From NCBI RefSeq assembly GCF_000143415.4, contig NW_003314364.1:124422-188421 (forward strand): a stretch of DNA of 64,000 nucleotides, in the 5' to 3' direction. Numbering within the stretch: the first letter of the stretch is position 1; each line of letters starts with the position of its first letter. A program made the position numbers and the translations under genes. The stretch is from Selaginella moellendorffii. Its lineage: Eukaryota > Plantae > Lycopodiophyta. Below the pieces are notes generated by a model. It did no database searches. It saw only the letters and a program-made list of their open reading frames with translations, and was not told the origin of the DNA. Below, piece by piece: positions 10,896 to 50,462 of the stretch.

Positions 10896-10919
10896 ATGCT
10901 CTATTTCGTTAAAGTGGGA
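10896..10919 (+). repeat. TIR (transposase-3' end) of copy 1
   Basis: 23/24 inverted match to 25798-25821; same end at 51637-51660. Confidence 0.93.
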
Positions 10920-11555
10920 TTTATTCAGTAAAATGGGACTAGGTACAAATTTTCAAGTATTTGAAAATGACGTGAAATTATATGTTTTTTGTCCAGGGGC
11001 TAGACATATCTGGGGCATGGTGACTAGCGCGGTGACTTTATGTCCAGACTGAGTCCATCTGGTTGTATAATAAATCTCATTGTCAAGGTGAACAAGCCGA
11101 ATCTGAAGCTAAAGAAGAGCGATGGCATGCACGCACACACTATTTGTTTGTTCATTGAGCATGTGGTGAGCTTTCCAAGATGAACGTCATTCCTATTAGC
11201 CAGACATATAACTTAATGGTGAGAACATTTAGATATTATTCAATGTTATCTTTTTCTAACGAATCTAATTGTGAAGGTGTAGCAAGAGGCATTGCTAGTC
11301 TGGAGAAGTCATTTAACTCATTTGACCCTTAGTGTATTTTCATGAAACTAAATAACATTCATATTATTAAGGAATTTCTCTAGTACCTTTTTTTTACGAC
11401 ATAGAGGCTTGCATTTCTTTCAAAGGTGATTTAGTAAAAGGCCTAAGGGCACATGCCATTCTATTTCTCAGACCGGTATTAAGATATACTAGTGCAAAGG
11501 GAAAAAGGTATTTGGTGATCAAGTAAATGGCATGAGGGCACACGCCATTATAAGG

Positions 11556-11830
11556 CTAAGCGCTAGTGGACACCTCCTTTTTGGTACTCTCAGCGGTACT
11601 ATCATCCTTCTCCGGGTCAGTTGTTTTGCTTTGGATTGTTGTCTCTGACGTTACTGGGGCGTTCTCGATAGTTGTTAATGTTGCCGTTTGTCCAGAAAAA
11701 TGATCACCTGGAGTATAGTACGGGGAGTTTGGAAGATTTATATATTCTACATCTTCACCTATCTCCTTCTCCGTCTCCTTTTCTGCCTCACTTACAGATT
11801 TTGTGTTTGCCATGAGAACGCTCTTCACCC
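11556..11830 (-). CDS. Probable exon downstream of the transposase (Thr/Glu/Lys-rich); gene context uncertain
   Basis: Frame stays open in copy 2 (50641-51000), ending KKEVSTSA*. Confidence 0.35.
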
Positions 11831-12253
11831 TAAAATATGGAGTTCGTTGTGTTATAAAAGGAAACCAACACACACGCTTCAAGGGAATGATGGTACATAA
11901 AGCACGTAAGCCCACAATATGGGTTTATGTGCCATTAATATGGGCCACACGCCATATTATTAGATTTATGCACGTGTGATTGGTAAATGCATATGTCACA
12001 TCATCTTTGTTTTACCTCACACACTATATCAGGCCTAATGAACCATATCACATGTGCGCACATGCTATATATATGGAGAAGTATTATGCAAGGATAGAAA
12101 TTCAATGCATGATTGTGGAGAGCAATGGCATGAAGCCACATGCTAAATAACATTTTAGAGAAAGATCTTGTTATTTGTTATTTGTATTATCTCACTTAGG
12201 AATGGCGTAAGGCCACATGCCATCACGCCTCCTCTGATTCAGATTCGGATTGT

Positions 12254-15200
12254 TCACCTTGAAATAAAATACATTAGAAACTTAGTAAAGGAATATTCAT
12301 GAATCTCACCTTGAACCCGGGTTATGAATGCTCTTGCTGCATCTCTTGCATGGTCTGGCAAGGTGATGGTGGCACTCTGCTTCCGCATCCAACCATGCAC
12401 AACATTATCCACCGATATGCTCATGCTGGGATCCCTTGGATTCAGCACCCATCTCTTTTCTAGGCAATCGTTCGTATATCCGGAACTTGGCTTGAACCAC
12501 TCCACAGTTACATTGAAGGAGTTAGTTTCCGCGTCCTCCTCTGCATCAGTGATGCAGCGCCCCACCCATATCATTTGTTTTTTATTACTGGGTCTGACAA
12601 GCACGACCATTCCTTTGCAGACCTGTACTGGATTGAATGCTGAATCCGGCTTCTTGTTCCTCGGCCCACAATAGTGATCCTCAACATCGTTATCTGTCAC
12701 TGCATTTCCAGAGGACATTGTTCCGCTACTATCTAGTGCTCTGGGTTCTGGCCAAAAGGACTCTTCCAATTCTTCATATACAACCGGCCCATTTTGGATA
12801 GCAGATATAATCTTCTCCCAGTATTCGAGCAAAGGTTTGCACCTCTGAAAATAGGATTCTCCACCAAACACCAACCCCCTCTTCCAGAAGGCAATATGCT
12901 GTCTAATCCCGGCCACTATACTTTCCTGGTCTTTGAGTCCATCCGGGTGCATCGGCCGTGGGGAACCCTGAGGAATCATAGGTTCCCCAGTTATGGGATC
13001 TCTCTTGAAGAGTTCAATGCCGTCCACTGGCAGCCACACTGTGTCCCATTCTCTCATCTTGTACCTCATCATTGGAGCACCGTCACACATGCTGAAATGA
13101 AACTGAAGAGGCTTGGAGTGGCCAATCAGCGTTTCGGATCCGTCCCTGATGTAGCCTCTTACAAACCCCTTAAAGTCTGGAACCTCTGTCAAAAGTGCAG
13201 CTTCAACAGTGCCTTTGATGCAATTTTGGAATTGATCGTAGAGTTGTGGGAGGGTGAGGACATTGGATCGCCGGAGGGACTCTGCCAGGTGACTGAACAT
13301 GGCATCGACGTCTTCATGAGTGTGCCCAACCATGAGAAAGCCAAGTGTAACCGTTTCAAATATGCCTTTGGCAACAAGCATCGCCAAGTACGCGAAGACG
13401 TACATGTTTTTGTTCTCACTGCCAGCATTGTCTGTTTGGAGCAGAAGATGGGGTGGAAGGCCACATCGGCCGCAAGAACTTCCTTGAGATTCTGCTTCGT
13501 TTGGATGAGGCTGTGCATTCACCGGGCGACCAGCCTCGTCGGAATGGCATGAGGCCTCACGTGATAACCCTACAATCTGACGGCCAACATATTCACTGGG
13601 ATGGCATGGGGCCCCACGCGATACTGCAAGCCTTTGCTCCTCCTCCAGCTGAACCCTGTATGGGGTTCGATCGACAAGGGCCTTATGCAAGGGTTGGCCG
13701 TTCAGCTCAGTCTGCGCACTTTGCAGAGACCTTAAGTGTTTTGCTAGGGACGCAATCATCATGTTTGCACCCCCGCCACCCCATAGAGGTACAAAGAAGT
13801 TCCCATAGTTCTGGGCACCATGCCCATGAGCGATTATGCCAAATAGAGACAGAGGCAGCTGCATGGATGAAGAGATTGCCTTGGGGGCAGGATTGAGTCG
13901 AGGTAAGCACGTCTTTTTCTGGTCCATTTTGTCGTGGATGATGCAGAGGTAAGAGTCAGGTCTCTCCATGGAGAGAATCCTGTTATGATAATATGCAGTC
14001 CTGCAGCTTCTCTGCTCGATGTTGTGGTCGAGCTGCCTTCTAACCAACGTCTCTCGCTCTTGAGCGCTACAAGAATTCTTCGACAAAGCCATTTTGATAG
14101 CAGTGCACTCGTCACACTTTGAAAAGTTGGAGTACTTTCCTATACTCACATCCCTGAACCTGTTGCTCCACAATCTACTAAATCTAGATTGGCTCAGCTT
14201 CCTGTAGCCATTACTCTGGAGTTCCCGATTCACATCTTCCAATATGGCCCCCTTGGTATACATGGAAGGGAGAACTCATTGGGTGTCTCGTGTTCCATCT
14301 TCCAAGAGGCGGGTTTTATGTGGTTGCTGCTCGCTACATGTCTCAACAAACCTCTTGAAGATTGCCTCTCCATATACAACATGACCCTGTGAGACACAAA
14401 ATCCCTAGGCCCCAAAGTGGAGCCAGAAGGGCGCCACATGGTAGTGGCCGAAGCGAGAGCCAAACGAGCGTAACACGTTTGGACCAAAAGCTCCGACTTG
14501 AAAAGTCAAGAGCGGGAGTGGAACTCCCAACGAAGTGCTCGAGGAACGAGCACGAAGCGAGCAAAAGGCGAGGCTCCAAAAAGGGACCCAAAAGGACCAA
14601 CACATGACACGTGGGAGTGTCCGAGATGGACTCGAGTTGGAGTCCGAAGTGGAGTCCGAGATGGACCCGAGTTGGAGTCCGAAGTGGAGTCCGAGATGGA
14701 CCCGAGTTGGAGTCCGAAGTGGAGTCCGAGATGGACCCGAGTTGGAGTCCGAAGTGGAGTCCGAAGTGGAGTCCGAGATGGACCCGAGTTGGAGTCCGAA
14801 GTGGAGTCCGAGATGGACCCGAGATGGACCCGAGATGGAGTCCGAGATGGAGTCCGAGGTGGACCCGAGATGGACCCGAAATGGAGTCCGAGATGGAGTC
14901 CGAGATGGACCCGAGATGGAGTCCGAGATGGAGTCCGAAGTCGAGACCGAGACCGAGACTGGGACCGAGACCGAGACCGAGACCGAGATCGGGACCGAGA
15001 CCGAGGCCGAGGCTGAGACCGAGCCCGAGCCCGAGTCCGAGTCCGAATCCGAGTCCGAGTCCGAGTCCGAGTCCGAGTCCGAGTCCGAGTCCGAGTCCGG
15101 AGCCTGAGAGGGTGAAAGCCCAAAGCGTTCGTCTCCCAGACCCTGGGGGGTTTGGTGAGCTCCAAAAGTATAGTAGGGGGAGGACTGCAGTGGAGCCAGT

Positions 15201-17084
15201 TTGGCCAGGAAAGGCCAGTTTGGCCCAGGAAGGCCGGACCCAGTGTTGGGTGATGAGCTGCCCACTGGGAAGTCCAAGACTAGAGTGAACACAGACCGAC
15301 AAGCGGGGTAGCTTGGTGAAGTGTTCAAGAGCCGGCTCTAGTTCCCCCGGGAGATCGACTGGCCGATGCTCCCAGTCCAAGTGTGGGTGGCACTACCTAC
15401 TTGGATACCTGGTGTGGCTCAACGGAACCCGCTCTAAGCCCATGGCTAGAGCACCTAAAGGCGAAAGGCGAGGAGAGTACCCAGGTGGCTCGCGTAAGGC
15501 CACGGTGTTCTGAAATGTTGTCCCGAAGGCCCAGCCTGTGGAAAGGAAGAGGAACAGTCCTCTGGGGTAGTGACCAAGGACACAGTCGTGTGGTGAGGAA
15601 GTCCCAGAGGACCGTGGGACTTAGTGGTCGGGCCTGTGGGTCTCGATCCAGTGGCAGTGTTGGCAAACACGGCCAGGGGCAGAAAGGGACTTAGTGGGAA
15701 CTGACAGAGGGATATTGGGGAAGGTTATTCCCCTTGTCGGTGGGCATCCTAAGGATGCTAAGGAGTGGATCTGAGATGACCACTCACGGATGGTTTGCCT
15801 AGTCTTGGAGAGCCAAGACGGTGATGCAAGTGGTATTGGACTACCAGTGTGGCAAAGGTGATTGGGCATGGCCTTAGCGTAACGGGCTGCTATGTCGGTG
15901 GTACCTTTGAGTGTTGGTCATGGGATCGGACACGTGGAGCACTTGGACCAAGTGCAAATGTTGAGTGGCATGGATGCCATTCTCGGGGCTAGCAAGTCCC
16001 AAGTCCTGGATTGGACTTATGGAGGTTGTGAATGAGACTCCTCCAAGTGGTCAGAGGTGTGGTTAAGTGACTAAAGTAGAATGGAAAATTTAGTCCCTTA
16101 CAGACCCCTGGTTTTGTGTGTACCGTCGTTCCCATGGACTGCCTGTTGAACCCTTTGTTCCTCGAACTCAGTTTTGATTCTATAGAATGTGGTTCGAGGG
16201 ACTCCATAAATGATTCTCCATGCCTTCATGCAGACCAAACCCCTCTGGAAGACCATGCCCGCCACCTGATGTTCTGAAGCATGAACAGATGACCGTAATG
16301 CCTCATACACAAAATTGCGAGCTGCCTTCCAGGACAATGTCTTGTATCTTGCTCTCTCCTCTTCAATAGCATCCCAATCAGCATGTTGACAGCACCTCCT
16401 CTTGCAACAAGCAACTGTCGAGACCATTCGAACCTCCATCGCCATTTTCTGCCTTTTCGGTTCGTTGCTCAGATCCCTTTGGCTGCGCTTTAGGAAGGTG
16501 TACTTTCTTTTCCCATGAAGAGATGTTCTGTCATCAGTTGTAGTGGTGTTTGATTGTGAATCCTTCACATTCTCAAACACTAAGTGCCTCAATTTCCACT
16601 GCACAATGCTTCCAATAGTCAGACTGTTTTCTTCTGTGTCAACAACCTCTAAAGTCGCAACTCCAATATCATCCCAGCCCAATTCTTGATTAGCAACCGC
16701 ATCTCTTGGATCGACAACTGTGGCTAAGCCCTCAGCTACCACCTCCCCCTCGGGGTTGTTTAGAAACACCTTTGCCTGAATCCATGTAGCACGGTTCTTA
16801 AGATCCACGGAGGGAACATGCGTCGCACTTGCGCTGTCCCCAACATCTGCTTTCTTCTGAAAATTTTTCAAGGCAACAACAACATTTACCCCGACGACCA
16901 TCTCTCCTCGTTCAATAGCGACCACATTCCCATCGAAGACAGTCTCTACTGATACAGCAGCATTGCCTTCCCCAAGCCTTTGACAGTGTATAACAAAGTT
17001 CCGATCCATAGACACAAGGGTCCCTTTTGCAACTCTCTTCCCACCATTCAAAATGTAAACCTTTTCCCCAACCCTGAAGGCCAT
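12254..17084 (-). pseudogene. Sola-like DDD transposase (~1040 aa once the solo LTR is removed); one in-frame TGA near 14277
   Basis: Motifs CIIHDKMDQ, LLLQTDNAGSENKN, FLMVGHTHEDVDAMF; CCKRRCC and VCMKAWRIIYGV upstream; frame KTRG-HVVYGE joins across the LTR. Confidence 0.85.
14388..16102 (+). mobile_element. Solo LTR (LTR-A, 1715 bp) inserted in the transposase
   Basis: TG...CA; 5-bp TSD GACCC at 14383-14387 and 16103-16107. Confidence 0.95.
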
Positions 17085-18379
17085 TCTGAAAGTGCAGAAA
17101 AGAAGTTAAGACTATACAAAAAATGATTGGAGAATGGCCTAAATCATAACATACCAAACAACCTCAATAGCATGAGGCCACATGCCATTATTCAAACATG
17201 CTATTGACACCCACGTGAAATTTCGCATTCACAAAATTGGCATGAGCCCTCATGCCATCTTGATATACACACAGCTGCAGGCAAGCAAAAACATACATGA
17301 CAATACGCTAGCCATGAAATTGCAAGGGCCCAAGATGGCATGTGGCCTCATGCCATTTCTAAATGTGGTCCTAAGCCATTCCATGGTGAACATACCAGGA
17401 AGCACAAGTGCCGAATATCAAGAGGAAGCGGTAGCCACACCAAAGACAGTGCCGCTCGCAACACCGCAACTACTCGTAGCGCCGCTCGCAACACCGCAAC
17501 TGCTCGTAGCGCCGCTTGCACAAACTGCCACTCGCATAAACTGTCGCTCGCAATAGCGCTCGCAATGCCGCAACCGCTCGTAGACGCATAAACCACAGCT
17601 CACAACGCCGCTTACACAAGCAGCGCTCACTGCGCTCAGCGGAACCAAGAACACGGCGCACAAAAATGATAGACCTAGGAATGAGTTCGAGAATTCAAAA
17701 ATAACACACGCTTGAACGTCACATCAAATCCTCTGACAAACCAGATCTTATGATTCCTCTGACAAATTTCAAACTAAGTAGCTTCTAGACTTTGCTGTCG
17801 GAGGTTGAACTTTGTCACATCATGTCCTTGCCTTGATCCAGCTGTGCCATGTCAGTGATTCGAACTTTGCCATGCTATGTCAGCGATCCGCACCAAGATT
17901 ATTCGCCGTGTAAAGGAATAATTATGCTGTGTGTGTACGTCCATTTATGGCAATATAAGGCCACACGCCATTCAAAAAATAATGCTAGTCGAGCATTTTT
18001 TGGTGCATTTTTGGGTTCAAATTTGCATGAGCCCACACGCTATAAAGTTTACCTGTACCAAAAATAGAAACAGCTTTATTTACTTGGGAATTTAAGTGGT
18101 TGAGGCATTTTTAAACTTACAAACACATGCTCTACTTACATTCCTTTGGTTGTTTAAAATTCAAAAATATTATAAACCTTTCTTTTTGCATTTTCAATGT
18201 TTTCAATTATGGTTTTTGATTTTCGCAGGACCAGCCTAGTAATCTATTTGCATCCCGTCATGTTTATAGCTAGCTTTCGTTTGTCCCCTTCGCTAGCCTG
18301 AAATACATCTGCTCGGCATCTGCCTCTTACAGCATTTGCCCAGAAAGGGGATCTTTCTTCACGCAGCATTTGCCACATG

Positions 18380-18412
18380 TTTAGGGTTTAGGGTTTAGGG
18401 TTTAGGGTTTAG
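18380..18412 (+). repeat. (TTTAGGG)4 telomere-type repeat inside the transposon
   Basis: Direct read; about 2 units at the equivalent sites of copies 2 (~46338) and 3 (~63960). Confidence 0.85.
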
Positions 18413-20008
18413 CAATTCAGTAGCTTGATAAACATGCAAATATAGAACTTGATTCAAAATCCTTTGATATGTCACAATGCCCCTAGGACCATAAACACAT
18501 TTCAATAGAGAGGGTCCTTTCATTTCATAACTCCTTACGTAGATCTTGGTGAAACCAGAGTTAGTGAAGTTAGTTTCTTGTGATCCCGTATCTGATTGTG
18601 ATGTCCCTTTGCAATTTCGATGGAAAGGTCAATGCACACCAAATTGTAAAATCTTGGAGCAAAATAACGGTCGGATCTATGGCAAATGCCCCTGAAATAT
18701 TGTAAGGCTCGTGTGGTCTCATGTGGTGTCCGATCGAGATGCTTCTTTGCAGGGTCATCAAGAAAGACATTGTATACCATTCTGTAAAATCTAGTTGCGA
18801 TCTAACGGTTGGATCTCCAGAAAACTCAAAAAAATCTCGCGCGTGTCAGAATATCCTAGGAATATACTCCTATGTGCCCCTGAAAATGGCATGCGGCCCC
18901 ACGCCATTCAAGAGATAACGCCAGATGACGCCGAGAATTTTTTGGTGCATTTTTTGGGTTCAAAATTGCATGAGCCCACACGCTATAAAGTTTATCTTTG
19001 CCAAATAGAGAAAAATTTATCTGTGTCATGTGAGGTAGTTACAGTCCTTTGTGCTCGGCATGTGCCTCTTGCAGCATTTGCACTGAAAGGGAATTTTTCT
19101 CCATTCAGCATTGGCCCTGAAAATGGCATGCGCCCACACGCCATTCAAGGAATAACGCCTCAGGACGCCTGGATTTTTGGGTTTAAAATGTTTAGGGTTT
19201 TTTGGGTTTTTTCAAAATATTTTGGGTCCAACGTTTTTTGGGTTTCTTTGGTTCAAAATTGCATGAGCCCACACGCTATAATATTGATTTGAGAGAAAAA
19301 TAGAAACAGATAGAATTTCTTTATTTAGCTGAACATCTGCCATTTTTGGAAATACAAGATGCTTTGGAATATCCAATCATGCATGGTATAAATATAGCGA
19401 GGGTATTAAATGATATCCCAATCATGATCTTTCTTTTGGATTTCGCGTGTATGCAGTCCGAGGAATGATGATGTTGCGGATTTCTTTTGGATTTTGCGTG
19501 CTTGCATGCGCGCGGCAATCCAGAAATTAATGGTGGCGCCCAAGTCCGAGGAATGATGACGTGGCGGGATTACCAACCGTTGTGACATTTCGTGCGTGTG
19601 AGGTTAGGTTTTGCATTTTTCTTTGTACTCGCACTCGCACACTCGCGCTCGCGCTCGCATCACACTCGCGCTCCCGCTCGCATCGCGCTCCCACTCGCGA
19701 TCACGCTCACTTCTCTACAGGTTTCTCGTGTGCATCGGCGTCCACTCGCGCTTGCATCACACTCGCGCTCGCATCACGCTCGTGTGCATCGGCGTCCACT
19801 TCAAGACACACCCAGTTTGTAACTTCGCCGCCAACTCCGCCGCCCACTCCGCCACCCACACGCAGCCCACTTGGCATCCCGGGAGATTTCAGCACCACTC
19901 TCCAACTGTAAGTGGTAGAGTAGCCTTGCTGCTACGATCCGCTGCACACACAGTGCACATTCGCCAGCGAGTCCAGCCTCGATTGTCACGGCCTCCATTC
20001 GGCTTCAA

Positions 20009-23000
20009 ATGGTAAGTCTTTTAGGCCAAGTAGAAAATGGCATGAGGCCACATGCCATTCAGTAGCAACATTGGCATGCACCAATTGGGCTCTCGAGTGC
20101 AGTCCGGTTACAGATGGCGTGTAGCCTCACGCCATCTTAGGATGCAGCCTCAAGACATCTGATGCAGTGGTGAATGGCGTGTGGCCTCACGTTATTTCCA
20201 GCTGCTAGCTTTTCATCTGTCAGCTCTAATTGTTGTGCATTTCTGAACAGGCGAGGAATTGCGTTCTTCTTCCAGCCACTGTCAATGTGGATGCAGAGAA
20301 GGGGGAGGAGCTCACCAGTTGGACTTTCGGGATGGAAGGCGAGGATCTGATGCTGTACAACACAGATGGTGGGAGAAAAGAATGCATGGGGATCCTCATC
20401 CAAGTGACAGACACTCCATGCAGTTCCATGCAAGAATATGGACTGGCACTTGTGGTAGAGACAGCGTCCGCCTTCAAGATCCATCTTGCACATCCTAGCG
20501 GCTTCCCGGAGGGGGGCAGCGGCTATGAGGAATTCCTAGAGGGAGCTAGGGAAAGGTTGTCCAGGAGGCCCACAATTTCAAAGACGCTGCGGGTCTATGA
20601 AGATCACATGGAATCCACGGACCTCACCTACGGCGATGTTCAAAAACTATATTCCAACATTGAGCCGTTGAGAGTGCCTCCAGGTTGCGAAGCGAAGGGG
20701 AAGGGGGTCGATCTGGAAACTACCCCGAAGTAAAAAAGGGTGGTCAAGCTCAAGCCGACGTCCGACTCTGCTGCTCCAAAAAAGAAGCTACTCGGTGATG
20801 CCATTGCCTCGGGTTCGAACACTACACCCACCAAAAAGAAGAGCCGCAAAGAGCAGAAAGAGCAAGAAGAGGCAGCAAAAATCGTCGCAGATAATAGTAC
20901 TTGTTACTATTCCAACAAAGTATATACAATCGACGTGAGCCGTATCGAGATCCAAAGCAAATACAACCACAGGCTAGTATCTGATGAGTGGGTGGAGAAA
21001 CTGAAGCAGAAGATGCTGGCAAGTCCAGTAACACCCGACATCGCAGACGTGATCCCCTACTACCGAGGAGGTAAAGAAAGTCTTCAAGACAAGAGTTGTC
21101 CGCCTGATAAAAGGCAACTCGCCCCTCCAATCTATCATATACATCTCCCACGCGCAGAATGTCAAGCAAGAAACGTGCTACAAATCGGGTCTGCACGAGA
21201 CATTGGCACGAACACGAAAGCTCTGGGTTCAACTGAAGAAGCCACAAAAACCAGGACAAGGACGTGCACTAGCAACTAGCGCCTGGCAGGTAAGCCTCGT
21301 TGCATGTAGCATAGCATGTGGCCTCACGCCATTTCCATTGCAGGAATTCTCGAGTCTTCTCTCGAAAACACTGGGGGTCAATGACACACTCAGCATCCAT
21401 AACATTCTACTCGCGACAAAAGTTGTTATTGACAAATGGGTAGATGTGCTGAGGAGGTACCATGACGGGGAGTTGCTAAACTCAATGGGTGTGGAGGACG
21501 GCCGGAAGCCCAATGATTTGAAGCTCAACGCCTTGCGTTTCTCGCGGTCTCCAGACGACGACGACCTTCTGACAGTGGCTAATGCTCTTCTACGTGGTGA
21601 GGTAGTCTTCAACAAGACCAAAATGACTCCCGGCCATATTGTGACATACGAGGACTTGTGCACGACTCTGAGAGCTCGTGCGCTATTGAAGGATTGGATC
21701 TTCGAGCAAGTGGCCGTTGCGAGGGTGAGCATCGACATCACGCAAGAGATGATGGAAGAGCTGGAGTTGTCAAATGAAGACATCGACGAGTACGTGAAGG
21801 GGGCCCCCAAGTTCATCGATCTGCTGCGGGATGCCACGAAAAGTAAAGCTGAGAAGTTGGATCAGTATCCAAATTTCATTAAGAGGGATGTCGACCGCCA
21901 GCTTCAGAAACAGCTCGACCCCGCAGCAGAGGCCTATCGAGAACCTTACCGGGTATACGTGAATTCGGATGAGGATCAAAGGTGGAGGAGCATCGTTTCC
22001 CGCGGAGATGAGCAGGTCAAGAATATCTTTTGTGTGATGGACTTCACAAACGAGGAGATCACTCATGCAGACGAAGTCAGCTCCATCATTGACTTAATGG
22101 TGGGACTTGCGGAGGTGGAATCTTCAGTCCACTATATGATCTATGACTCCGAATCCTATCACAAGTTCTGGAAGGCCTTGAACGAGGTGAAGGCTCGGTT
22201 GAAAGGCAAGGAGATGCGGGAGATCCATGGGATAATGGCTAAGAAGAAGATACCGACGAATGTCCGCATCTTCACACTCGCCCTTGTTATTGGTCCTGCA
22301 GCAGAGTGGGACTGGAGTGACTTCCCAGCTTCGTTCAACAAAGCCGATCGAATTGATCTGAGGGAGGTCAATTTACCCATGCCTGAGGAACTGAAGACGG
22401 CTATGGAGCTTTCGAATCCAAAGAAAGCTCCAGGTGCAGCATGGGAAATGCTCAGCTGGGTCTTCAACGCAATAGCAGGTGACTCCAAGGGCAAATGCGT
22501 TGTCGAGTACAACTGCGGCGGACTATTCTTTCAAGCCGCACTACTCAAGGGTGTCCCGTGTGTTGCGGTGACAAACTCCATTGAAGAGGTGACTTCAATG
22601 GAGCATATAATTACAGTTGCCAAAGAAAAACAGTATCTTCTCTACGAACCTGGTGAGTACGCACTTTAAGTTTAAATGTTATCTCACAAGCTCTGTATGC
22701 AGGAGCGTGGCCACCCCCAGATGCTGAAACGGCGTTAACAGCTACTGATGTTAGGCCGAGCTCACAACCTGCACAAGGTAAGGTCACGTGAGGCCTCACG
22801 CCATTTTGATTATAGATCGTTGTGAATATTCAGACACGAGGACTGAAAAGCGCACTGGTGGCGCGTCGAAGAAGGACAAACAGACAAGCAATAGGAAAAA
22901 AGGAGGTACAAATTATATTTGCAATGGCGTGTGGTCTCATGCCATTCCTTGCAGGAGACACTTCTTCAAAGGCAAAACAGGCAAGCACCAGCCAAGCTCA

Positions 23001-25477
23001 AACTGACAGTGGTCATAAAAAGCGAAAGCACGTTGGACAGTCGTCGGGATCAGAGGCGTTTGATTCGAAAAGGAAGAAGGGCAACGAAAAGATGATAGGT
23101 AATGCCTCGCGGTTATGGCGTGTGTGCTCATGCCATTCATTGCAGATCAAGGGCTGAGTGAAAGGAGCCAGTCACCACCTTCTGACTCAGATTCCTATGG
23201 CGGACTCCCCTTCCCCAATCTCAATGGAGAGGTACAATGGATGAGGGATGCTTTTCAAGTCAGGGCCACGTTTTTCTCATCTCATCGTCTTCGAAGGGTG
23301 CAAGAACGTGCAGAAACCATATTAAGACAGTCGGGTGAGGATACGGTCCTAGGTCACGCACTAAAACAGGCTATGGATGTCTTGTATTTTGAGATGGAGA
23401 CTCGGCCAGATGATTTTCCCAAGATGGTCCTGGAAAAACAAGCCATCCAGCCTGAGCAGCCTATGGAAGAAATGTAGGAGGGGGATGAGGAGCCAGAGAA
23501 AGATAATGAGCAGGAAGAGCAGAAGGACGAAGAGGAGGACAAAGAAGAGGAGGACGAAGAAGAGGAGGATGAAGAAGAGGAGGACGAAGAGGACTTGGAT
23601 GGTCCTCACAATGGTGACGATCACAATAACGACGATGACGATGATGACGACGATGGCCAGCCTGAGGTGGCCAAAGAGCAGCGGAGGAAGGTCATACAAG
23701 ACAAACCATCAGGTAAATAATAGTACATCCATTCCTAACCTTTTACCATTTCTAACATTGTCCATGTAGGTCGCAGAAGAAATGGTAAGTAGAGATTATT
23801 CAGTTGAATTAAGATACAAACTCTAGCCTTTAGTGTCGAGGAAGGATAGTGCCAAGTAAGGGTCGAAACGTATGTCCAATCCTTCAGAATCAGCAGTGCG
23901 CCCAAGTGATATCGGTCCTAGTTCCTCAATAGCAGTTGATGGTAAATACAGTATAGTCGATTCAATGTGCTAATGAGTTTGTTTTTAGTAGCACGGGAGG
24001 ATACCATCTCAATCGAAGGGAGATATTTGGACATGCATATGGATCCGCCAGTGGACTCTACTTGCCTGCAAGAGTCATCAGAGCTGGTGGAGGCTACTAT
24101 CCATATCAACGCCAAGCAAGCTGACCATGCTCCACTTGATGCTGCCCATACCACTGAGTCAATCTTGTCCACGTATCCAACTGACGGTGACCAGGCGCTA
24201 TTGGACCCGCATGAGGCCGCCCCAGCCGCCGAGCCGGTCGTATCCTCATTTCCAACGTGTGCCCAATCGTCTGACTACGCGCCGTTGGAACCTCCCTACA
24301 CCGCCCCTGCTGCCTGTTTGGTCATGTCCACTTTGCCAACGGAGGCACCAGCTGAAATGGCGTGTGATCACACGCCATCGGAACCACCCCATGCCACTGT
24401 TGAGCCAGTTGTACCAGAGTCTACAGCTGAAATGATGCGTGCCCACACGCCATCGGATGCGTGCCCACACGCCATATTGCAGAGGAGAGTATTTCCGCCC
24501 TTCACGTTTCCTCGACCAAAACCCTCTGAACGACCATCGGGAGCACCATTCGCTAATATTGTAGATGGTAAAATTGACTTGTACCATTTTTTATGCTAAC
24601 GCATTTCATTTTAGAGTCACGGCGAAAGTACTGTATCGTTTTTGATCTGAATGGTGTCCTTTTCTCCCATGAGCATGGCTCGTCCTCGAATGTCACTGCA
24701 CCCTCCAAAGCCTGCGGTCGCAAGTTGGTCAAAAGAGACAGATTCACATTAATCACACGGGAGAAACTGCGGGATCTAATAATGACCATGCGACACTTAA
24801 AACAGAGGGCCGGGTTCAATTTGCAATTGGGAGTTTGGACATCCATGATGCGCCACAATGCATTAACGTTGCTACAGATGATGCACGATCAGACGCGAGT
24901 AATATTACCATTTGACTTTCTCCTAACGCAGGAGGATTGCTTGACTATGGTCCATGTGAGGGGTAGCAAGACCATCTTCATCAAGCCAGAGGCTGTAGTG
25001 ATGAACCGGACTGCTAGGTCAAGTGAAATCCTCATCATCGATGACTCGCCGATTAAAACTGCAGCGAACACGCACACATATGCAGTGCACCCCATCTCTT
25101 GCAGTATGGAAACTAGGGAGAAGAAACCGTATGTTCTTGGGGACCTTGCAAAACGGCTTGAAGCGATGGTGATAGAGAACCGGCCAGTCCAGGAGGTGGC
25201 TGCAGAAATCAACCAAATGGCAGATGGAACGGTATATCAGAAGCCATTTGATTGGACAGACACCAGTCATCATTTATGGCATGTATATTGTCTAGCCAAG
25301 CACTATCCGCATCTCCATAATCTGCTCAACCGGATGGGTTCTTCGACCACTGAACATGAGCGTGGACGTATTAGAGAAGAGATGGCATTACTATTGGGTT
25401 TAAATCCTGATAGTGTGGAGAGTGATGAAATTCCAAGATTATTGTATAGGCGTTGGAGGCAAAAAATAACAGTCTGA
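20009..25477 (+). pseudogene. Multi-exon cargo gene: ParB-like, MTase-fold-like, acidic/Pro-rich linker, FCP1/NIF-like HAD phosphatase (lesioned in this copy)
   Basis: GT-AG introns 20012-20250, 21290-21343, 22653-22702, 22778-22815, 22906-22954, 23099-23145, 23713-23769, 23785-23833, 23942-23988, 24568-24614 join the frames; stops at 20731, 23475 and ~23857; 140-bp deletion at ~21066. Confidence 0.7.
24615..25477 (+). CDS. FCP1/SCP (NIF)-like HAD phosphatase domain, last exon of the cargo gene
   Basis: IVFDLNGVL, GVWTS, TQEDC, FIK and LIIDDSPIK motifs in order. Confidence 0.8.
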
Positions 25478-25797
25478 GATGGCATGTATTTATTTAAAAA
25501 TGTAACTTATTATGGCATGGGGTTCCATGCCAAGGGGAAAGTAAAGATTGAATGGGGACTTGGGCTCCACCTAGACTCGGAGCAACTGAGCCAATATTAA
25601 AAGGATGGAAAGAAATTGGACGACGATGACAAGGAGAAGAGAGAGGTGAAGCAGTGGCAGGGGGAGGAGAAGTGATTAAGTAGACATTTCCTTGTTTAAA
25701 ATAAAATGGCATGTGCCTCAATGCAGTTGAATTTTGTTATATTTATATACTATATAAAGGTTTGGAAACCTTATTTTACAAGTGGGATAATGACAAT

Positions 25798-25821
25798 TCC
25801 CACTTTAACGAAATAGAGCTT
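25798..25821 (-). repeat. TIR (cargo-3' end) of copy 1
   Basis: Same end as 42476-42499 and 56566-56589. Confidence 0.93.
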
Positions 25822-25825
25822 AGAG

Positions 25826-42471: not shown

Positions 42472-42820
42472 CATCAAGCTCTATTTCGTTAAAGTGGGAA
42501 TTGTCATTATTCCACTTGTAAAAATAAGGTTTCCAAACCTTTATATAATATATAAATATAACAAAATTCAACTGCATTGAGGCACATGCCATTTTATTTT
42601 AAACAAGGAAATGCCTACTCAATCACTTCTCCTCCCCCTGCCACTGCTTCACCTCTCTCTTCTCCTTGTCATCGTCGTCCAATTTCTTTCCATCCTTTTA
42701 ATATTGGCTCAGTTGCTTCGAGTCTAGGTGGAGCCCAAGTCCCCATTCAATCTTTACTTTCCCCTTGGCATGGAACCCCATGCCATAATAAGTTACATTT
42801 TTAAATAAATACATGCCATC

Positions 42821-45800
42821 TCAGACTGTTATTTTTTGCCTCCAACGCCTATACAATAATCTTGGAATTTCATCACTCTCCACACTATCAGGATTTAAAC
42901 CCAATAGTAATGCCATCTCTTCTCTAATACGTCCACGCTTATGTTCAGTGGTCGAAGAGCCCATCCGGTTGAGCAGATTATGGAGATGCGGATAGTGCTT
43001 GGCTAGACAATATACATGCCATAAATGATGACTGGTGTCTGTCCGATCAAATGGCTTCTGATATACCGTTCCATCTGCCATTTGGTTGATTTCTGCAGCC
43101 ACCTCCTGGATTGGCCGGTTCTCTATCACCATCGCTTCAAGCCGTTTTGCAAGGTCCCCCAGAACATACGGTTTCTTCTCCCTAGTTTCCATACTGCAAG
43201 AGATGGGGTGCACTGCATATGTGTGCGTGTTCGCTGCAGTTTTAATCGGCGAGTCATCGATGATGAGGATTTCACTTGACCTAGCAGTCCGGTTCATCAC
43301 TACAGCCTCTGGCTTGACGAAGATAGGCTTGCTACCCCTCACATGGACCATAGTCAAGCAATCCTCCTGCGTTAGGAGAAAGTCAAATGGTAATATTACT
43401 CGCGTCTAATCGTGCATCATCTGTAGCAACGTTAATGCATTGTGGCGCATCATGGATGTCCAAACTCCCAATTGCAAATTGAACCCGGCCCTCTGTTTTA
43501 AGTGTCGCATGGTCATTATTAGATCCCGCAGTTTCTCCCGTGTGATTAATGTGAATCTGTCTCTTTTGACCAACTTGCGACCGCAGGCTTTGGAGGGTGC
43601 AGTGACATTCGAGGACGAGCCACACTCATGGGAGAAAAGGACACCGTTTAGATCAAAAACGATACAGTACTTTCGCCGTGACTCTGAAATGAAATGCGTC
43701 AGCATAAAAAATGGTACAAGTCAATTTTACCATCTACAATATTAGCGAATGGTGCTCCCAATGGTCGTTCAGAGGGTTTTGGTCGAGGAAACGTGAAGGG
43801 CGGAAATACTCTCCTCTGCAATGTGGGGTCAATCGCATCCGATGGCGTGTGGGCACATGCCATTTCAGCTGTAGACTCTGGTACAACTGGCTCAACAGTG
43901 GCATGGGGTGGTTCCGATGGCGTGTGATCACACGCCATTTCAGCTGGTGCCTCCGTTGGCAAAGTGGACATGACCGAACAGGCAGCAGGGGCGGTGTAGG
44001 GAGGTTCCAACGGCGCGTAGTCAGACGATTGGGCACACGTTGAGTCCGTTGGAAATGAGGATATGACCGGCTCGGCGGCTGGGGCGGCCTCATGCGGGTC
44101 CAATGGCGCCTGGTCACCGTCAGTTGGATACGTGGACAAGATTGACTCAGTGGTATGGGCAGCATCAAGTGGAGCGTGGTCAGCTTGCTTGGCGTTGATA
44201 TGGATAGTAGCCTCCACTAGCTCTGATGACTCTTGCAGGCAAGTAGAGTCCACTGGCGGATCCATATGCATGTCCAAATATCTCCCTTCGATTGAGATGG
44301 TATCCTCCCTACTGGCTACTGAAAACAAACTCATTAGCACATTGAATCGACTATACTGTATTTACCATCAACTGCTATTGAGCGCACTGCTGATTCTGAA
44401 GGATTGGACATACATTTCGACCCTTGCTTGGCACTATCCTTCCTCGACACTAAAGGCTAGAGTTTGTATCTTAATTCAACTGAATAATCTCTACTTACAG
44501 CATAATAATAGCATGAGGACATACGCGATGAGCACACAAATGCTTTTACCCTTCCTCCTCTGCCCTGGTCAGTTGTCCATCTCTTTGTCTACAGCGTCTG
44601 AAAGCTGTTTTGCAGGTAGCCTAATTCGAGGTTCACGACGTCTCCTTGGCACTTGAACTGTATATTATTGCATCAACACATGCAACATCCCATAATATTT
44701 TTAAGTTATCTTTCATAAAGTTTTCCATTGGTTCAACTCGTTTCCCTGAAATACAAACTTAGATAAGTGCATGGGGCCATATGTCATGATCGTACCTGTT
44801 TCAGAAATCTCCTTATCACTCTCCGAGGCCTCCCCCTCCTCCACTGGAGGCACAATGTTCCATTCGATTTCCTCGACGCGATCTGCAAGAACATTAGTTA
44901 ATTGCGTGGGGCCACACGCCATCAAACCTTCAGGTTCTTGTCGTGAGGTCTGCGCTGCTTGCCCTAGTCTCTTTGGAATTTGAGCTGCAAGAAGCAATGG
45001 CATGAGAATTCACGTATAACAAAAATGATTGGTACCTCTCGTCCGTTGTACTTGGCTGGTGCTTGCCTGTTTTGCATTTGAAGAAGTGTCTCCTGCAAGG
45101 AATGGCATGAGACCACACGCCATTGCAAATATAATTTGTACCTCCTTTTTTCCTATTGCTTGTCTGTTTGTCCTTCTTCGACACGCCACCAGTGCGCTTT
45201 TCAGTCCTCGTGTCTGAATATTCACAACGATCTATAATCAAAATGGCATGAGGCCTCACGTGACCTTACCTTGTGCAGGTTGTGAGCTCGGCCCAACATG
45301 GGTATCTTCAATAGTAGCTGTTAACGCCGTTTCAGCATCTGGGGGTGGCCACGCTCCTGCATACAGAGCTTGTGAGATAACATTTAAACTTAAAGTGCGT
45401 ACTCACCAGGTTCGCAGAGAAGATACTGTTTTTCTTTGGCAACTGTAATTATATGCTCCATTGAAGTCACCTCTTCAATGGAGTTTGTCACCGCAACACA
45501 CGGGACACCCTTGAGTAGTGCGGCTCGAAAGAATAGTCCGCCGCAGTTGTACTCGACAACGCATTTGCCCTTGGTGTCACCCGCTATTGCGTTGAAGACC
45601 CAGCTGAGCATTTCCCATGCTGCACCTGGAGCTTTCTTTGGATTCGAAAGCTCCATAGCCGTCTTCAGTTCCTTAGGCACGGGTAAATTGACCTCCCTCA
45701 GATCAATTCGATCGGCCTTGTCGAACGAAGCTGGGAAGTCACTCCAGTCCCACTCTGCTGCAGGACCAATAACAAGGGCGAGTGTGAAGATGCGGACATT

Positions 45801-46240
45801 CGTCGGTATCTTCTTCTTAGCCATTATCCCATGTATCTCCCGCATCTCCTTGCCTTTCAACCGAGCCTTCACCTCGTTCAAGGCCTTCCAGAACTTGTGA
45901 TAGGATTCGGAGTCGTAGATCATATAGTGGACTGAAGATTCCACCTCCGCAAGTCCCACCATTAAGTCAATGATGGAGCTGACTTCGTCTGCATGAGTGA
46001 TCTCCTCGTTTGTGAAGTCCATCACACAAAAGATGTTCTTGACCTGCTTTGACAAGGCGTTGAGCTTCAAATCATTGGGCTTCCGGCCGTCCTCCACACC
46101 CATTGAGTTTAGCAACTCCCCGTCATGGTACCTCCTCAGCACATCTACCCATTTGTCAAAAACAACTTTTGTCGTGAGTAGAATGTTATGGATGCTGAGT
46201 GTGTCATTGAACCCTAGTGTTTTCGAGAGAAGACTCGAGA
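42821..46240 (-). pseudogene. Cargo gene remnant (MTase-like, linker and HAD exons; ParB-like part deleted)
   Basis: Homology to copies 1 and 3; TAG in the HAD exon at 43406. Confidence 0.8.
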
Positions 46241-47857
46241 CTCGAGAAAATGTGTTTATGGTCCTAGGGGCATTGTGACATATCAAAGGATTTTGCATCA
46301 AGTTCTGTATTTGCATGTTTATCAAGCTACTGAATTGCTAAACCCTAAACCCTAAACATGTGGCAAATGCTGCGTGAAGAAAGATGCCCTTTCTGGGCAA
46401 ATGCTGTAAGAGGCAGATGCCGAGCAGATGTATCTCAGGCTAGCGAAGGGGACAAACGAAAGCTAGCTATAAACATGACGGGATGCAAATAGATTACTAG
46501 GCTGGTCCTGCGAAAATCAAAAACCATAATTGAAAACATTGAAAATGCAAAACGAAAGGTTTATAATATTTTTGAATTTTAAGCAACCAAAGGAATGTAA
46601 GTAGGGCATGTGTTTGTAAGTTTAAAAATGCCTCAACCACTTAAATTCCCAAGTAAATAAAGCTGTTTCTATTTTTGGTACAGGTAAACTTTATAGCGTG
46701 TGGGCTCATGCAATTTTGAACCCAAAAATGCACCAAAAAATGCTCGACTAGCATTATTCTTTGAATGGCGTGTGGCCTTATATTGCCATAAATGGACGTA
46801 CACACACAGCATAATTATTCCTTTACACAGCGAATAATCTTGGCGCGGATCGCTGACATGGCATGGCAAAGTTCGAATCACTGACATGGCACAGCTGGAT
46901 CGAGGCAAGGACATGATGTGACAAAGTTCAACCTCCGACAGCAAAGTCTAGAAGCTACTCAGTTTGAAATTTGTCAGAGGAGTCATAAGATTTGGTTTGT
47001 CAGAGGATTTGATGTGACATTCAAGCGTGTGTTATTTTTGAATTCTCGAACTCATTCCTAGGTCTATCATTTTTGTGTGCCGTGTTCTTGGTTCCGCTGA
47101 GCGCAGTGAGCGCTGCTTGTGTAAGCGGCGTTGTGGGCTGTGGTTTATGCGTCTACGAGCGGTTGTGGCATTGTGAGCGCCATTGCGGGCGGCAGTTTAT
47201 GCGAGTGGCAGTTTGTGCGAGCGGCACTACGAGCAGTTGCGGTGTTGCGAGCGGCGCTACGAGTAGTTGCGATGTTGCGAGCGGCACTGTCTTTGGTGTG
47301 GCTACCGCTTCCTCTTGATATTCGGCACTTGTGCTTCCTGGTATGTTCACCATGGAATGGCTTAGGACCACATTTAGAAATGGCATGAGGCCACATGCCA
47401 TCTTGGGCCCTTGCAATTTCATGGCTAGCGTATTGTCATGTATGTTTTTACTTGCCTGCAGCTGTGTGTATATCAAGATGGCATGAGGCCTCATACCATC
47501 TTTGGCCCCTGCTAGCCTATTGCCATATTCCTTTTGCCTTGCTGCAACTGTATATATTTCTGTATGGGTGACTAGTCACGCACACAAATATATATACAGT
47601 TGCAGCAAGGCAAAAGGAATATAGCAACAGGCTAGCAGGGGCCAAAGATAGCGTGAGGCCTCATGCCATTAGTGGTACCACTAATGGCATGAGGGCTCAT
47701 GCCAATTTTGTGAATGCGAAATTTCATGTGGGTGTCAATAGCATGTTTGAATAATGGCATGTGGCCTCATGCTATTGAGGTTGTTTGGTATGTTATGATT
47801 TAGGCCATTCTCCAATCATTTTTTGTATGGTCTTAACTTCTTTTCTGCACTTTCAGA

Positions 47858-50462
47858 ATGGCCTTCAGGGTTGGGGAAAAGGTTTACATTTTGAATGGTG
47901 GGAAGAGAGTTGCAAAAGGGACCCTTGTGTCTATGGATCGGAACTTTGTTATACACTGTCAAAGGCTTGGGGAAGGCAATGCTGCTGTATCAGTAGAGAC
48001 TGTCTTCGATGGGAATGTGGTCGCTATTGAACGAGGAGAGATGGTCGTCGGGGTAAATGTTGTTGCTGCCTTGAAAAATCTTCAGAAGAAAGCAGATGTG
48101 AGGGACAGCGCAAGTGCGACGCATGTTCCCTCCGTGGATCTTAAGAACCGTGCTACATGGATTCAGGCGAAGGTGTTTCTAAACAACCCCGAGGGGGAGG
48201 TGGTAGCTGAGGGCTTAGCCACAGTTGTCGATCCAAGAGATGCGGTTGCTAATCAAGAATTGGGCTGGGATGATATTGGAGTTGCGATTTTAGAGGTTGT
48301 TGACACAGAAGAAAACAGTCTGACTATTGGAAGCATTGTGCGGTGGAAATTGAGGCACTTAGTGTTTGAGAATGTGAAGGATTCACAATCAAACACCACT
48401 ACAACTGATGACAGAACATCTCTTCATGGGAAAAGAAAGTACACCTTCCTAAAGCGCAGCCAAAGGAATCTGAGCAACGAACCGAAAAGGCAGAAAATGG
48501 CGATGGAGGTTTGAATTGGAAGATGTGAATCGGGAACTCCAGAGTAATGGCTACAAGAAGCTGAGCCAATCTAGATTTAGTAGATTGTGGAGCAACAGGT
48601 TCAGGGATGTGAGTATAGGAAAGTACTCCAGCTTTTCAAAGTGTGACGAGTGCACTGCTATCAAAATGGCTTTGTCGAAGAATTCTTGCAGCGCTCAAGA
48701 GCGAGAGACGTTGGTTAGAAGGCGGCTCGACCACAACATCGAGCAGAGAAGCTGCAGGACTGCATATTATCATAACAGGATTCTCTCCATGGAGAGACCT
48801 GACTCTTACCTCTGCATCATCCACGACAAAATGGACCAGAAAAAGACGTGCTTACCTCGACTCAATCCTGCCCCCAAGGCAATCTCTTCATCCATGCAGC
48901 TGCCTGTGTCTCTGTTTGGCATAATCGCTCATGGGCATGGTGCCCAGAACTATGGGAACTTCTTTGTACCTCTATGGGGTGGCGGGGGTGCAAACATGAT
49001 GATTGCGTCCCTAGCAAAACACTTAAGGTCTCTGCAAAGTGCGCAAACTGAGCTGAACGGCCAACCCTTGCATAAGGCCCTTGTCGATCGAACCCCATAC
49101 AGGGTTCAGCTGGAGGAGGAGCAAAGGCTTGCAGTATCGCGTGGGGCCCCATGCCATCCCAGTGAATATGTTGGCCGTCAGATTGTAGGGTTATCACGTG
49201 AGGCCTCATGCCATTCCGACGAGGCTGGTCGCCCGGTGAATGCACAGCCTCATCCAAACGAAGCAGAATCTCAAGGAAGTTCTTGCGGCCGATGTGGCCT
49301 TCCACCCCATCTTCTGCTCCAAACAAACAATGCTGGCAGTGAGAACAAAAACATGTACGTCTTCGCGTACTTGGCGATGCTTGTTGCCAAAGGCATATTT
49401 GAAACGGTTACACTTGGCTTTCTCATGGTTGGGCACACTCATGAAGACGTCGATGCCATGTTCAGTCACCTGGCAGAGTCCCTCTGGCGATCCAATGTCC
49501 TCACCCTCCCACAACTCTACGATCAATTCCAAAATTGCATCAAAGGCACTGTTGAAGCTGCACTTCTGACAGAGGTTCCAGACTTTAAGGGGTTTGTAAG
49601 AGGCTACATCAGGGACAGATCCGAAACGCTGATTGGCCACTCCAAGCCTCTTCAGTTTCATTTCAGCATGTGTGACGGTGCTCCAGTGATGAGGTACAAG
49701 ATGAGAGAATGGGACACAGTGTGGCTGCCAGTGGACGGCATTGAACTCTTCAAGAGAGATCCCATAACTGGGGAATCTATGATTCCTCAGGGTTCCCCAC
49801 GGCCGATGCACCCGGATGGACTCAAAGACCAGGAAAGTATAGTGGCCGGGATTAGACAGCATATTGCCTTCTGGAAGAGGGGGTTGGTGTTTGGTGGAGA
49901 ATCCTATTTTCAGAGGTGCAAGCCTTTTCTCGAATACTGGGAGAAGATTATATCTGCTATCCAAAATGGGCCGGTTGTATATGAAGAATTGGAAGAGTCC
50001 TTTTGGCCAGAACCCAGAGCACCAGATAGTAGCGGAACAATGTCCTCTGGAAATGCAGTGACAGATAACGATGTTGAGGATCACTATTGTGGGCCAAGGA
50101 ACAAGAAGCCGGATTCAGCATTCAATCCAGTACAGGTCTGCAAAGGAATGGTCGTGCTTGTCAGACCAAGTAATAAAAAACAAATGATATGGGTGGGGCG
50201 CTGCATCACTGATGCAGAGGAGGACGCGGAAACTAAGTCCTTCAATGTAATTGTGGAGTGGTTCAAGCCAAGTTCCGGATATACGAAGGATTGCCTAGAA
50301 AAGAGATGGGTGCTGAATCCAAGGGATCCCAGCATGAGCATATCGGTGGATAATGTTGTGCATGGTTGGATGCAGAAGCAGAGTGCCACCATCACCTTGC
50401 CAGACCATGCAAGAGATGCAACAAGAGCATTCATAACCCGGGTTCAAGGTGAGATTCATTAA
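47858..50462 (+). pseudogene. Transposase of copy 2, with an internal deletion at ~48515 and a D-to-N change
   Basis: ORFs 47858-48514 and 48516-50462 match copy 1; QTNNAG replaces QTDNAG. Confidence 0.85.

Follow-up and report, generated by a model that had tools for sequence, protein, structure and literature searches.

ParB-bearing accessory genes have only recently been noted in algal transposons, where binding of the encoded protein to its own element is a proposal in the accessible parts of the reports. In the brown alga Ectocarpus, the 21.5-kb element Sola1-1_Ec32, which has a 4-bp target-site duplication (TSD) and best matches the Sola1-1_PPa transposase, carries opposite its transposase an accessory gene for a 1,104-aa protein with ParB and N4C/N6A methylase domains, for which binding and modification of the element that encodes it were proposed (PMC12477816, accessible part). 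In Plavaka elements of the red alga Bostrychia, a ParB-oxygenase gene (PAG3) lies beside inverted repeats, and a methylase-SET gene is also present (bioRxiv 10.1101/2025.02.11.637652, accessible part). According to these portions of the two sources, a ParB-methylase accessory gene in Sola1 and the pairing of ParB with inverted repeats in Plavaka are already known. Here, we describe a DNA transposon of the lycophyte Selaginella moellendorffii, found in a 64,000-nt stretch (assembly GCF_000143415.4, contig NW_003314364.1, positions 124,422 to 188,421, forward strand; the whole stretch is called the window), whose second gene, the cargo, is predicted to encode one protein with a ParB-like part, a methyltransferase fold, a long linker, and a HAD domain. 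The new parts are the plant host, the degenerate methylase, and the added HAD domain; in a literature search that left subscription papers mostly outside, no plant member, no degenerate methylase in such a setting, and no HAD fusion was found.

The window is repeat-rich eukaryotic DNA, in which self-BLAST identified three copies of one element, approximately 97% identical to copy 1; judged by this identity, the element is young. The features of the element and of its transposase, with terminal inverted repeats abbreviated as TIRs and long terminal repeats as LTRs, are as follows.

10896..25821: copy 1, the whole DNA transposon (self-BLAST, TIR ends, TSDs)
10898..10919, + strand: left TIR core, 22 bp (4-bp TSD at 10892-10895)
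25798..25819, - strand: right TIR core, 22 bp (4-bp TSD at 25822-25825)
12254..17084, - strand: transposase gene, DUF7869, approximately 1,040 codons, one internal stop, split by a solo LTR (Pfam PF25273, E 4e-42)
14388..16102: nested solo LTR (TG...CA, 5-bp TSD) inside the transposase, foreign to the element (self-BLAST and frame reading)
42476..51657, - strand: copy 2, internally deleted, inside a Gypsy integrase (self-BLAST, ends, empty-site joint)
56566..64000, - strand: copy 3, extending past the window end (self-BLAST)

Copy 1 is approximately 13.2 kb long without the nested solo LTR and approximately 14 kb with deleted stretches restored. The 22-bp inverted core is perfect at the element ends, and a 4-bp TSD flanks both independent insertions, that of copy 1 within long interspersed nuclear element (LINE) sequence and that of copy 2, with a different 4 bp, in the Gypsy integrase. 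The empty Gypsy site for copy 2, with four shared letters at the joint, was present in contigs of two public runs (X7 and X2), which confirms the element ends. The transposase frame is continuous in copy 1 once the solo LTR is skipped, and the two genes are divergent and on opposite strands, the transposase running leftward from approximately 17084 and the cargo rightward from 20009; the original prediction that the frame was transposon cargo is thus borne out by its position inside a TIR/TSD element opposite a DUF7869 transposase. The transposase matched DUF7869 only, a domain that is linked to Sola. At this locus both a 4-bp TSD and TIRs with the perfect 22-bp core are present, and Sola elements have a 4-bp TSD (PMC3627910 and a supplement row of PMC12477816, accessible parts). 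The transposase is likely of the Sola1 DDE/D type and the element a member of the Sola1 group. As side observations, the solo LTR that splits the transposase belongs to a family with internal GC-rich tandem repeats that is found three times (14388-16102, 2478-4474, and 32747-34463), and the N-terminus of the transposase (16103-17084, - strand) contains two similar beta-rich blocks with a weak, sub-cut-off match to PF03017 Transposase_23 (E 0.02).

With Ectocarpus Sola1-1_Ec32, as described in the accessible part of that source, the Selaginella element shares the form of a giant TIR element, the 4-bp TSD, and an accessory gene opposite the transposase that encodes a ParB-like and then an amino-methylase domain. 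The likeness is by description, no search having returned the Ectocarpus or red-algal proteins, and the two differ in the size of the protein (1,760 aa here versus 1,104), in the TIRs (22 bp versus 282 bp), and in the host, a plant versus a brown alga. In addition, the methylase motifs are lost here, whereas the Ectocarpus protein is described there as able to modify DNA, and the accessible text mentions no HAD domain.

The gene model of the cargo was derived by a splice search by coordinates, in which copy 1 was filled with stretches found only in copy 3, under three penalty settings that returned proteins of 1,547, 1,775, and 1,745 aa. In the two stricter settings (1,775 and 1,745 aa), the frame starts with M-ARNC at 20009 and its stop ends at 25477. 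The loosest setting (23 introns, 1,547 aa) was rejected because its introns were cut out of conserved domains. The adopted model adds one optional 45-nt intron to the 1,775-aa path, which results in 17 exons and 1,760 aa.

20009..20011, + strand: exon 1, the ATG only, followed by a 239-nt intron (splice search)
20251..21289, + strand: exon 2, N-terminal domain (aa 2-150), basic spacer, and ParB/DUF3723-like domain (splice search, embedding match)
61731..61870, - strand: 140 bp of exon 2 found in copy 3 only, core of the ParB-like domain (copy comparison; the loose end of an X1 contig matches)
21344..21937, + strand: first part of exon 3, helical region kept in homologues, putative DNA-reading part (BLASTP, predicted helices)
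21938..22652, + strand: second part of exon 3, predicted fold of a beta-class N6A/N4C methyltransferase whose motifs IV and I are degenerate (predicted structure)
22703..24567, + strand: exons 4-16, low-complexity linker of approximately 640 aa made of symmetric phase-1 exons (splice search)
59487..60180, - strand: 694 bp of the linker in copy 3, exons 6-12 and introns 6-11 (copy comparison)
24615..25477, + strand: exon 17, NIF-family HAD (DLNGV, WTS, K, DDS) and a helical tail of approximately 120 aa (Pfam PF03031; open in copy 1 only)

All 16 introns of this model are GT-AG and 14 of them measure 45-57 nt. Fourteen in succession, introns 3-16, are in phase 1, and therefore each of exons 4-16 is a multiple of three. 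The chance control for this exon chain was run on the 3,018-nt linker, whose true path scored 58.1, with 13/13 introns in phase 1 and 12/13 of no more than 60 nt. The reverse complement of the linker gave no splice path, shuffled linkers gave a path in 22 of 100 cases (best score 15.7), and other stretches of the window gave one in 10 of 36, with at most three short introns each. Six of the seven distinct small exonic indels between copies preserve the frame. Moreover, intron 2 lies between WQ and EF, the very point at which a two-residue difference separates two S. moellendorffii gene models, a coincidence that suggests a conserved intron. The single continuous spliced frame from 20009 to 25477 that had been proposed by merging copies 1 and 3 therefore stands, with a phase-1 chain far above the controls.

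Several observations limit this model or weigh against a single long product. None of the three window copies is intact, and the open frame is a composite: copy 1 has two in-frame stops of its own (aa 162 at 20731 in exon 2 and aa 1175 at 23475 in the linker, read as X) and deletions of 140 bp at 21063/21064 in exon 2 and of 694 bp at 23001/23002 in the linker; copy 3 has lost 4 bp and 471 bp in two deletions and carries stops in the HAD domain; and copy 2 is without exons 1-2 and further stretches. The intact genomic copy that had been envisaged was thus missing among the copies of the window. Retention of intron 3 would bring a stop six codons on, and an in-frame ATG lies within intron 16, just 5' of the HAD domain. 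Four Selaginella homologue models (see below) stop right after the methylase fold, and neither the ParB N-terminus nor the HAD domain is present in any homologue found. Between copies 1 and 3, the proportions of nonsynonymous and synonymous differences (pN/pS) are 0.021/0.047 in exon 2, 0.028/0.014 in the linker, and 0.015/0.006 in the HAD domain, and no sign of purifying selection is seen in the linker or HAD domain among the three window copies.

Part of this evidence could be explained by two products, one being a protein with ParB and the methylase fold that terminates in the linker or close to exon 3, the other the product of a host NIF gene that was captured and is expressed on its own. 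Such a reading would accommodate the stop in a retained intron 3, the ATG in intron 16, the ends of the Selaginella models, the failure of searches rated weak to retrieve a fused homologue, and the Ectocarpus protein, which the accessible part of PMC12477816 describes with ParB and methylase only. However, 14 unbroken phase-1 introns and frame-keeping indels join exon 3 to exon 17, and a hexamer scan of copy 1 detected between these exons only a single weak poly(A)-like hexamer, within intron 13, with an AATAAA after the HAD stop. Two products therefore appear quite improbable, and a single transcript reaching the HAD exon is likely. One transcript is a deduction because no intact copy lies in the window and no RNA junction was found: runs X10, X11, and X12, approximately 12% of each being read, contained neither intron-skipping joints nor full-length exon coverage. 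Contigs of X1 and X2 cross introns unspliced and look like DNA, and X3 contributed two short pieces; 7 of 23 sequence runs were compared with the element, and no run among the 23 is listed as holding its RNA.

Contigs of run X1 have sense codons at both copy-1 stops as well as the 140-bp and 471-bp segments, and those of X7 have stretches and one sense codon that are absent from copy 2. Although no single X1 or X7 record covers the whole gene, these unbroken states indicate that an intact cargo existed recently or persists elsewhere. Copies 2 and 3 share the 471-bp deletion and the HAD stop, so defective copies appear to have been mobilised in trans, as would be expected if the element proteins act on common cis sites. 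Upstream of the cargo ATG, approximately 40 nt at 19905-19944 attracted 167 (X10) and 110 (X11) RNA reads whose flanks do not fit the element and presumably resemble the 3' end of large-subunit ribosomal RNA (rRNA). The promoter or 5' untranslated region may therefore contain a piece of rRNA that was captured; an Rfam scan of 19300-20300 found nothing real and left the fragment unconfirmed.

With regard to the N-terminal half of the protein, aa 2-150 (20251-20700) form a globular-looking segment without a Pfam match, and the ParB-like part spans approximately aa 216-395, from approximately 20893. By ESM Atlas features, whose scores are uncalibrated for protein parts, the latter resembles two unnamed clusters (0.96 and 0.95), the commonest phyla of which are sponges and molluscs, a DUF3723 cluster (0.95), and a ParB_N cluster (0.92). 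On the other side, ParB has no match in Pfam, PHROGs, or NCBIfam. ParB CTPases contain the CTP-binding motif GxxRxxA, and at the equivalent place copy 3 reads VSGQHSSL, with G-Q-H-S for G-x-x-R. The original ParB-like call thus gains embedding support and lacks database support; on the embedding match, a ParB-like fold is the likely prediction for this part. DUF3723 may itself be ParB-like. It is a recurrent accessory gene of giant fungal Starships in the accessible part of bioRxiv 2021.12.13.472469, so that the two systems have in common an accessory gene of giant elements as well as the embedding neighbourhood. In contrast, Starships are tyrosine-recombinase elements and the cargo has no Pfam PF12520 match; the Starship label was dropped. 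The Atlas neighbours, sponge and mollusc clusters together with fungal DUF3723, hint at a wide distribution of ParB-like accessory domains among mobile elements of eukaryotes.

Exon 3 was searched against 1.84 billion representatives and gave four matches, two of which are real homologue clusters (P0001 and P0003 were discarded as repeat artefacts). By BLASTP, its helical region matched P0002 (E 1e-17) and P0008 (E 3e-12), with 24-27% identity in the SELMODRAFT_409495 / LOC9650508 family, whose annotation is uncharacterised, and in the metagenome protein P0008. The four Selaginella models (P0002, P0005, P0006, and P0007), which derive from at least two annotated S. moellendorffii loci and are 379-451 aa long, comprise the helical region and a degenerate methylase fold; they may represent domesticated genes, or models of related elements that were cut short. 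This family shares with the cargo the degenerate methylase motifs and apparently the position of intron 2, whereas its models and P0008 are without the ParB N-terminus and the HAD domain. Two homologues matched HTH_17 at E 0.14-0.17 only. Two further homologue searches had no match and one returned P0004 only, none of 596 candidates was confirmed in metagenome locus scans, PDB sequence searches with the cargo found nothing significant, and tblastn against phages and plasmids gave nothing below E 3. Locus L001, the one confirmed among 30 in another metagenome scan, was dropped as a bacterial glycosyltransferase region.

A structural model of exon 3 was folded with a six-row alignment. Residues 199-436 of this model align with CcrM by VIA-align (Z 15.0, root-mean-square deviation (rmsd) 3.7 A, 205 residues), followed by M.BceJIV (Z 14.5) and M.MboIIA (Z 14.4). 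All of the top 20 rows are permuted amino-methyltransferases or their MT-A70 branch, the first unrelated row has Z 6.9, and Foldseek, in agreement, returned 47 matches at E<=0.001. The model has the circularly permuted Rossmann fold, in which motif IV precedes motif I. Among viral proteins it matches best a phage protein combining ParB and methylase (BFVD A0A6J5MMM5; rmsd 20 A, methylase part only, approximately 10% identity), and Atlas features of the methylase part gave a best score of 0.84 with all of the top 10 families being PF01555, which serves as a lead only. Evidence of the opposite tendency should be set beside these matches. The mean predicted local distance difference test score (pLDDT) of the model was 47.8, which is low confidence, and hhalign of the exon-3 profile against 28 beta-class enzymes (of 29 selected viral-contig methylases from 75 loci, one broken row being removed) gave a probability of 0.8% and E 0.07, below the best of 20 shuffles. 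The methylase has no match in Pfam, PHROGs, or NCBIfam, and the fold of exon 3 from a single sequence was unusable (pLDDT 34, best Z 4.5). Because the alignment-free model is blank and the profile comparison non-significant, the assignment is based on predicted structure and a weak embedding lead. Even so, a beta-class N6A/N4C methyltransferase fold is predicted for the second part of exon 3 with very high confidence, and a segment besides the HAD domain has thus returned a fold match, as the original prediction had implied. That prediction had ascribed ParB-methylase fusions to phage and prokaryotic mobile DNA. The phage match is of this kind, and such fusions are also already described in eukaryotic transposons in the accessible part of PMC12477816. 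The cargo and the phage ParB-plus-beta-class methyltransferase proteins share the order of ParB and then a permuted amino-methyltransferase fold, whereas the linker, the HAD domain, and the loss of catalytic motifs are found in the cargo only. Phage ParB-terminase loci have also been described (PMC4738411, accessible part).

The motifs of this fold, mapped by strand order and by eye, are degenerate. Motif IV, [DNS]PP[YFW], is present in 0/3 family members versus 21/28 reference enzymes (24/28 with a looser pattern), PPY being replaced by FTN, LRR, or SAN so that only the Asp of DPPY is kept. The strict motif I, D/E-x-F-x-G-x-G, occurs in 0/3 members and 9/28 references, and a looser pattern in 17/28 references only; at its place the family reads EYNCGG, EYGCGG, or DINTGG, with Gly-Gly kept. 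Since catalytic and S-adenosylmethionine (SAM)-binding motifs are lost, the fold is probably not an enzyme, and the active-methylase label was dropped. Judged by its motifs, the fold has probably lost catalysis and would instead serve for DNA binding or dimerisation. If it were a diverged N4C or N6A enzyme that still works and marks the element encoding it, a role proposed for the algal proteins, this would agree with the resemblance to active enzymes, with the motif IV Asp and motif I Gly-Gly kept across the family, and with the activity of 4mC enzymes of this class in Marchantia (bioRxiv 2021.02.12.428880, accessible part). The PPY and the FxGxG loop are altered in 3/3 members, however, and dead transposon-borne methylases have a precedent in DIRS1, the methylase copies of which are all called inactive (PMC4738411, accessible part). 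Active self-marking is therefore very unlikely.

The linker of approximately 640 aa has few hydrophobic residues, basic clusters resembling nuclear localisation signals, a small helical block, and an acidic tract; a globular-looking segment at approximately aa 1085-1165 (23200-23450) has no Pfam match. Exon 17 matches Pfam NIF (PF03031) with 28.6 bits against a cut-off of 21.8 (E 1.3e-6). In common with FCP1/SCP, the domain has this family match, a nucleophile Asp, a motif II Thr/Ser, a motif III Lys candidate, and DDS. Motif I reads DLNGV in 3/3 copies, with stops in copies 2 and 3, whereas FCP1/SCP proteins require DxDx(T/V), and no Pfam family, BRCT included, was found on the 108-aa C-terminal tail. 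For these two reasons, it is a NIF-family HAD but not FCP1, and the FCP1 orthologue label was dropped; the link to the C-terminal domain (CTD) of RNA polymerase II (Pol II) that the original prediction had drawn is not supported. Loss of the second Asp usually weakens HAD enzymes of this type. The cargo HAD presumably resembles uncharacterised DLNG-type plant and fungal NIF proteins. Among its possible substrates, the Pol II CTD is one option, though a doubtful one.

An element-wide palindrome, which had escaped the original prediction, is the best clue to the function of the cargo.

11122..25727: 27 dispersed 22-bp palindromes, ATGGCRTG-N6-CAYGCCAT (matrix search)

Copy 1 (12,743 nt) contains 27 sites, copy 2 contains 21, and copy 3 contains 15, whereas none occurs in the 32,453 nt outside the copies, in the nested insert, or in 30 shuffles; the count for copy 1 is partly circular because the matrix was trained on this copy, which tempers the argument drawn from it. 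Only 4/27 sites are in coding sequence (23/27 outside), though coding sequence makes up 59% of the element (P 2.5e-6), and 9 of the 16 cargo introns contain one. The sites have no relation to the TIR, reach to approximately 100-230 bp from both element ends, and are distributed across introns and the promoter region rather than concentrated at the ends. ParB proteins bind palindromic parS sites (bioRxiv 2025.02.11.637652, accessible part), and the cargo is therefore the natural binder of this palindrome; we consider it fairly likely that the protein binds the candidate 22-bp site. Two further observations concern individual sites. In copy 2, a 190-bp hairpin lies between two 22-bp palindromes (47478-47710), where 206 bp are absent from copy 1, probably lost by deletion between the palindromes; and two palindromes fall within the transposase frame (13544-13622), in an apparent variable insert of the catalytic domain that is possibly an in-frame intron.

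The hairpin leaves some room for the view that the palindromes serve the transposase or were left behind by a small hairpin element, the cargo being an unlinked passenger, the more so as transposases may regulate their own element (bioRxiv 10.64898/2026.08.24.746577, accessible part). Nevertheless, the palindrome bears no relation to the TIR and does not occur in 32 kb of other repeats, and in red-algal elements ParB-like genes are found together with inverted repeats (bioRxiv 2025.02.11.637652, accessible part), so this view has a slim chance. As far as the accessible Bostrychia text goes, PAG2/PAG3 and the cargo have in common a ParB-like accessory protein with element-borne inverted repeats and an N6_N4 methylase gene in the same element. 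The Bostrychia elements differ in their EnSpm/Plavaka transposase, in the placement of ParB-2OG oxygenase and methylase-SET in separate genes, and in repeats that form tandem arrays versus the dispersal through introns seen here; the word phosphatase does not occur in that portion of the text (bioRxiv 10.1101/2025.02.11.637652).

Among transposon-encoded regulators, VANC of Arabidopsis VANDAL has its motif in introns, intergenic DNA, and terminal non-coding DNA of its own element (PMC5735166, accessible part). The cargo protein is likewise an accessory product of its transposon, and the motif specific to the element is enriched outside coding sequence. No homology to VANC is seen, however, VANDAL belongs to the MULE superfamily, and anti-silencing was demonstrated for VANC and would apply here by analogy. 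The VANC motif is also 9-bp, non-palindromic, and in same-orientation tandem arrays in that source versus a palindrome here, so the analogy is loose, which counts against it. On this analogy, anti-silencing or self-activation, not transposition chemistry, has about an even chance of being the purpose of the cargo, and the fuller proposal that it is the element's own sequence-specific, VANC-like regulator, made from a ParB/parS-like pair, that keeps the family expressed despite silencing falls slightly short of that. In such a mechanism, the second gene of the 14-kb cut-and-paste transposon would yield a single spliced product of 1,760 residues, which would load at the palindromes in element introns and spacers through its ParB-like and helical regions, while the dead methylase fold would add a DNA contact or dimerisation. 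The long flexible linker would tether the HAD domain as an effector brought to a chromatin or transcription target, where it might act as a weak phosphatase or as a phospho-protein trap on a chromatin or transcription factor, and the regulator would thereby hold the element open against host silencing.

A role as a transposition cofactor should also be considered, in which the protein would spread and bridge along the 14-kb element, pair the short TIRs for the transposase, or tether the element at segregation, much as TnpA assists Spm. The 22-bp TIRs are indeed short for an element of 14 kb and palindromes lie near both ends, and ParB proteins are generally known to spread and bridge DNA. TnpA is required for Spm transposition (bioRxiv 10.64898/2026.08.24.746577, accessible part). 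On the other hand, the palindromes are dispersed in introns and the promoter region rather than placed at the ends, and a methylase fold with a phosphatase domain suits chromatin or transcription better than synapsis. This role is accordingly rated as unlikely.

Only for very few plant proteins, such as VANC and TnpA, is it understood how transposons evade silencing by the host. The boldest form of the regulator proposal, which is speculative and itself improbable, holds that a land-plant transposon has rebuilt the bacterial ParB/parS system as an anti-silencing machine, in which a ParB-like protein would load on approximately two dozen private palindromes and spread, a dead phage-type methylase fold would read or mask DNA, and a tethered NIF phosphatase would be brought to the CTDs of Pol II or Pol IV/V or to the targets of chromatin kinases. 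A young element with a sharply defined 22-bp candidate site makes this ParB/parS-like idea directly testable. The comparison with algal elements suggests that the ParB module swaps effectors, namely a methylase, an oxygenase, and here a dead methylase with a phosphatase. If the ParB/parS anti-silencing idea is true, the cargo would parallel VANC independently, with a mechanism that is transparent, and would offer an epigenome tool that can be retargeted.

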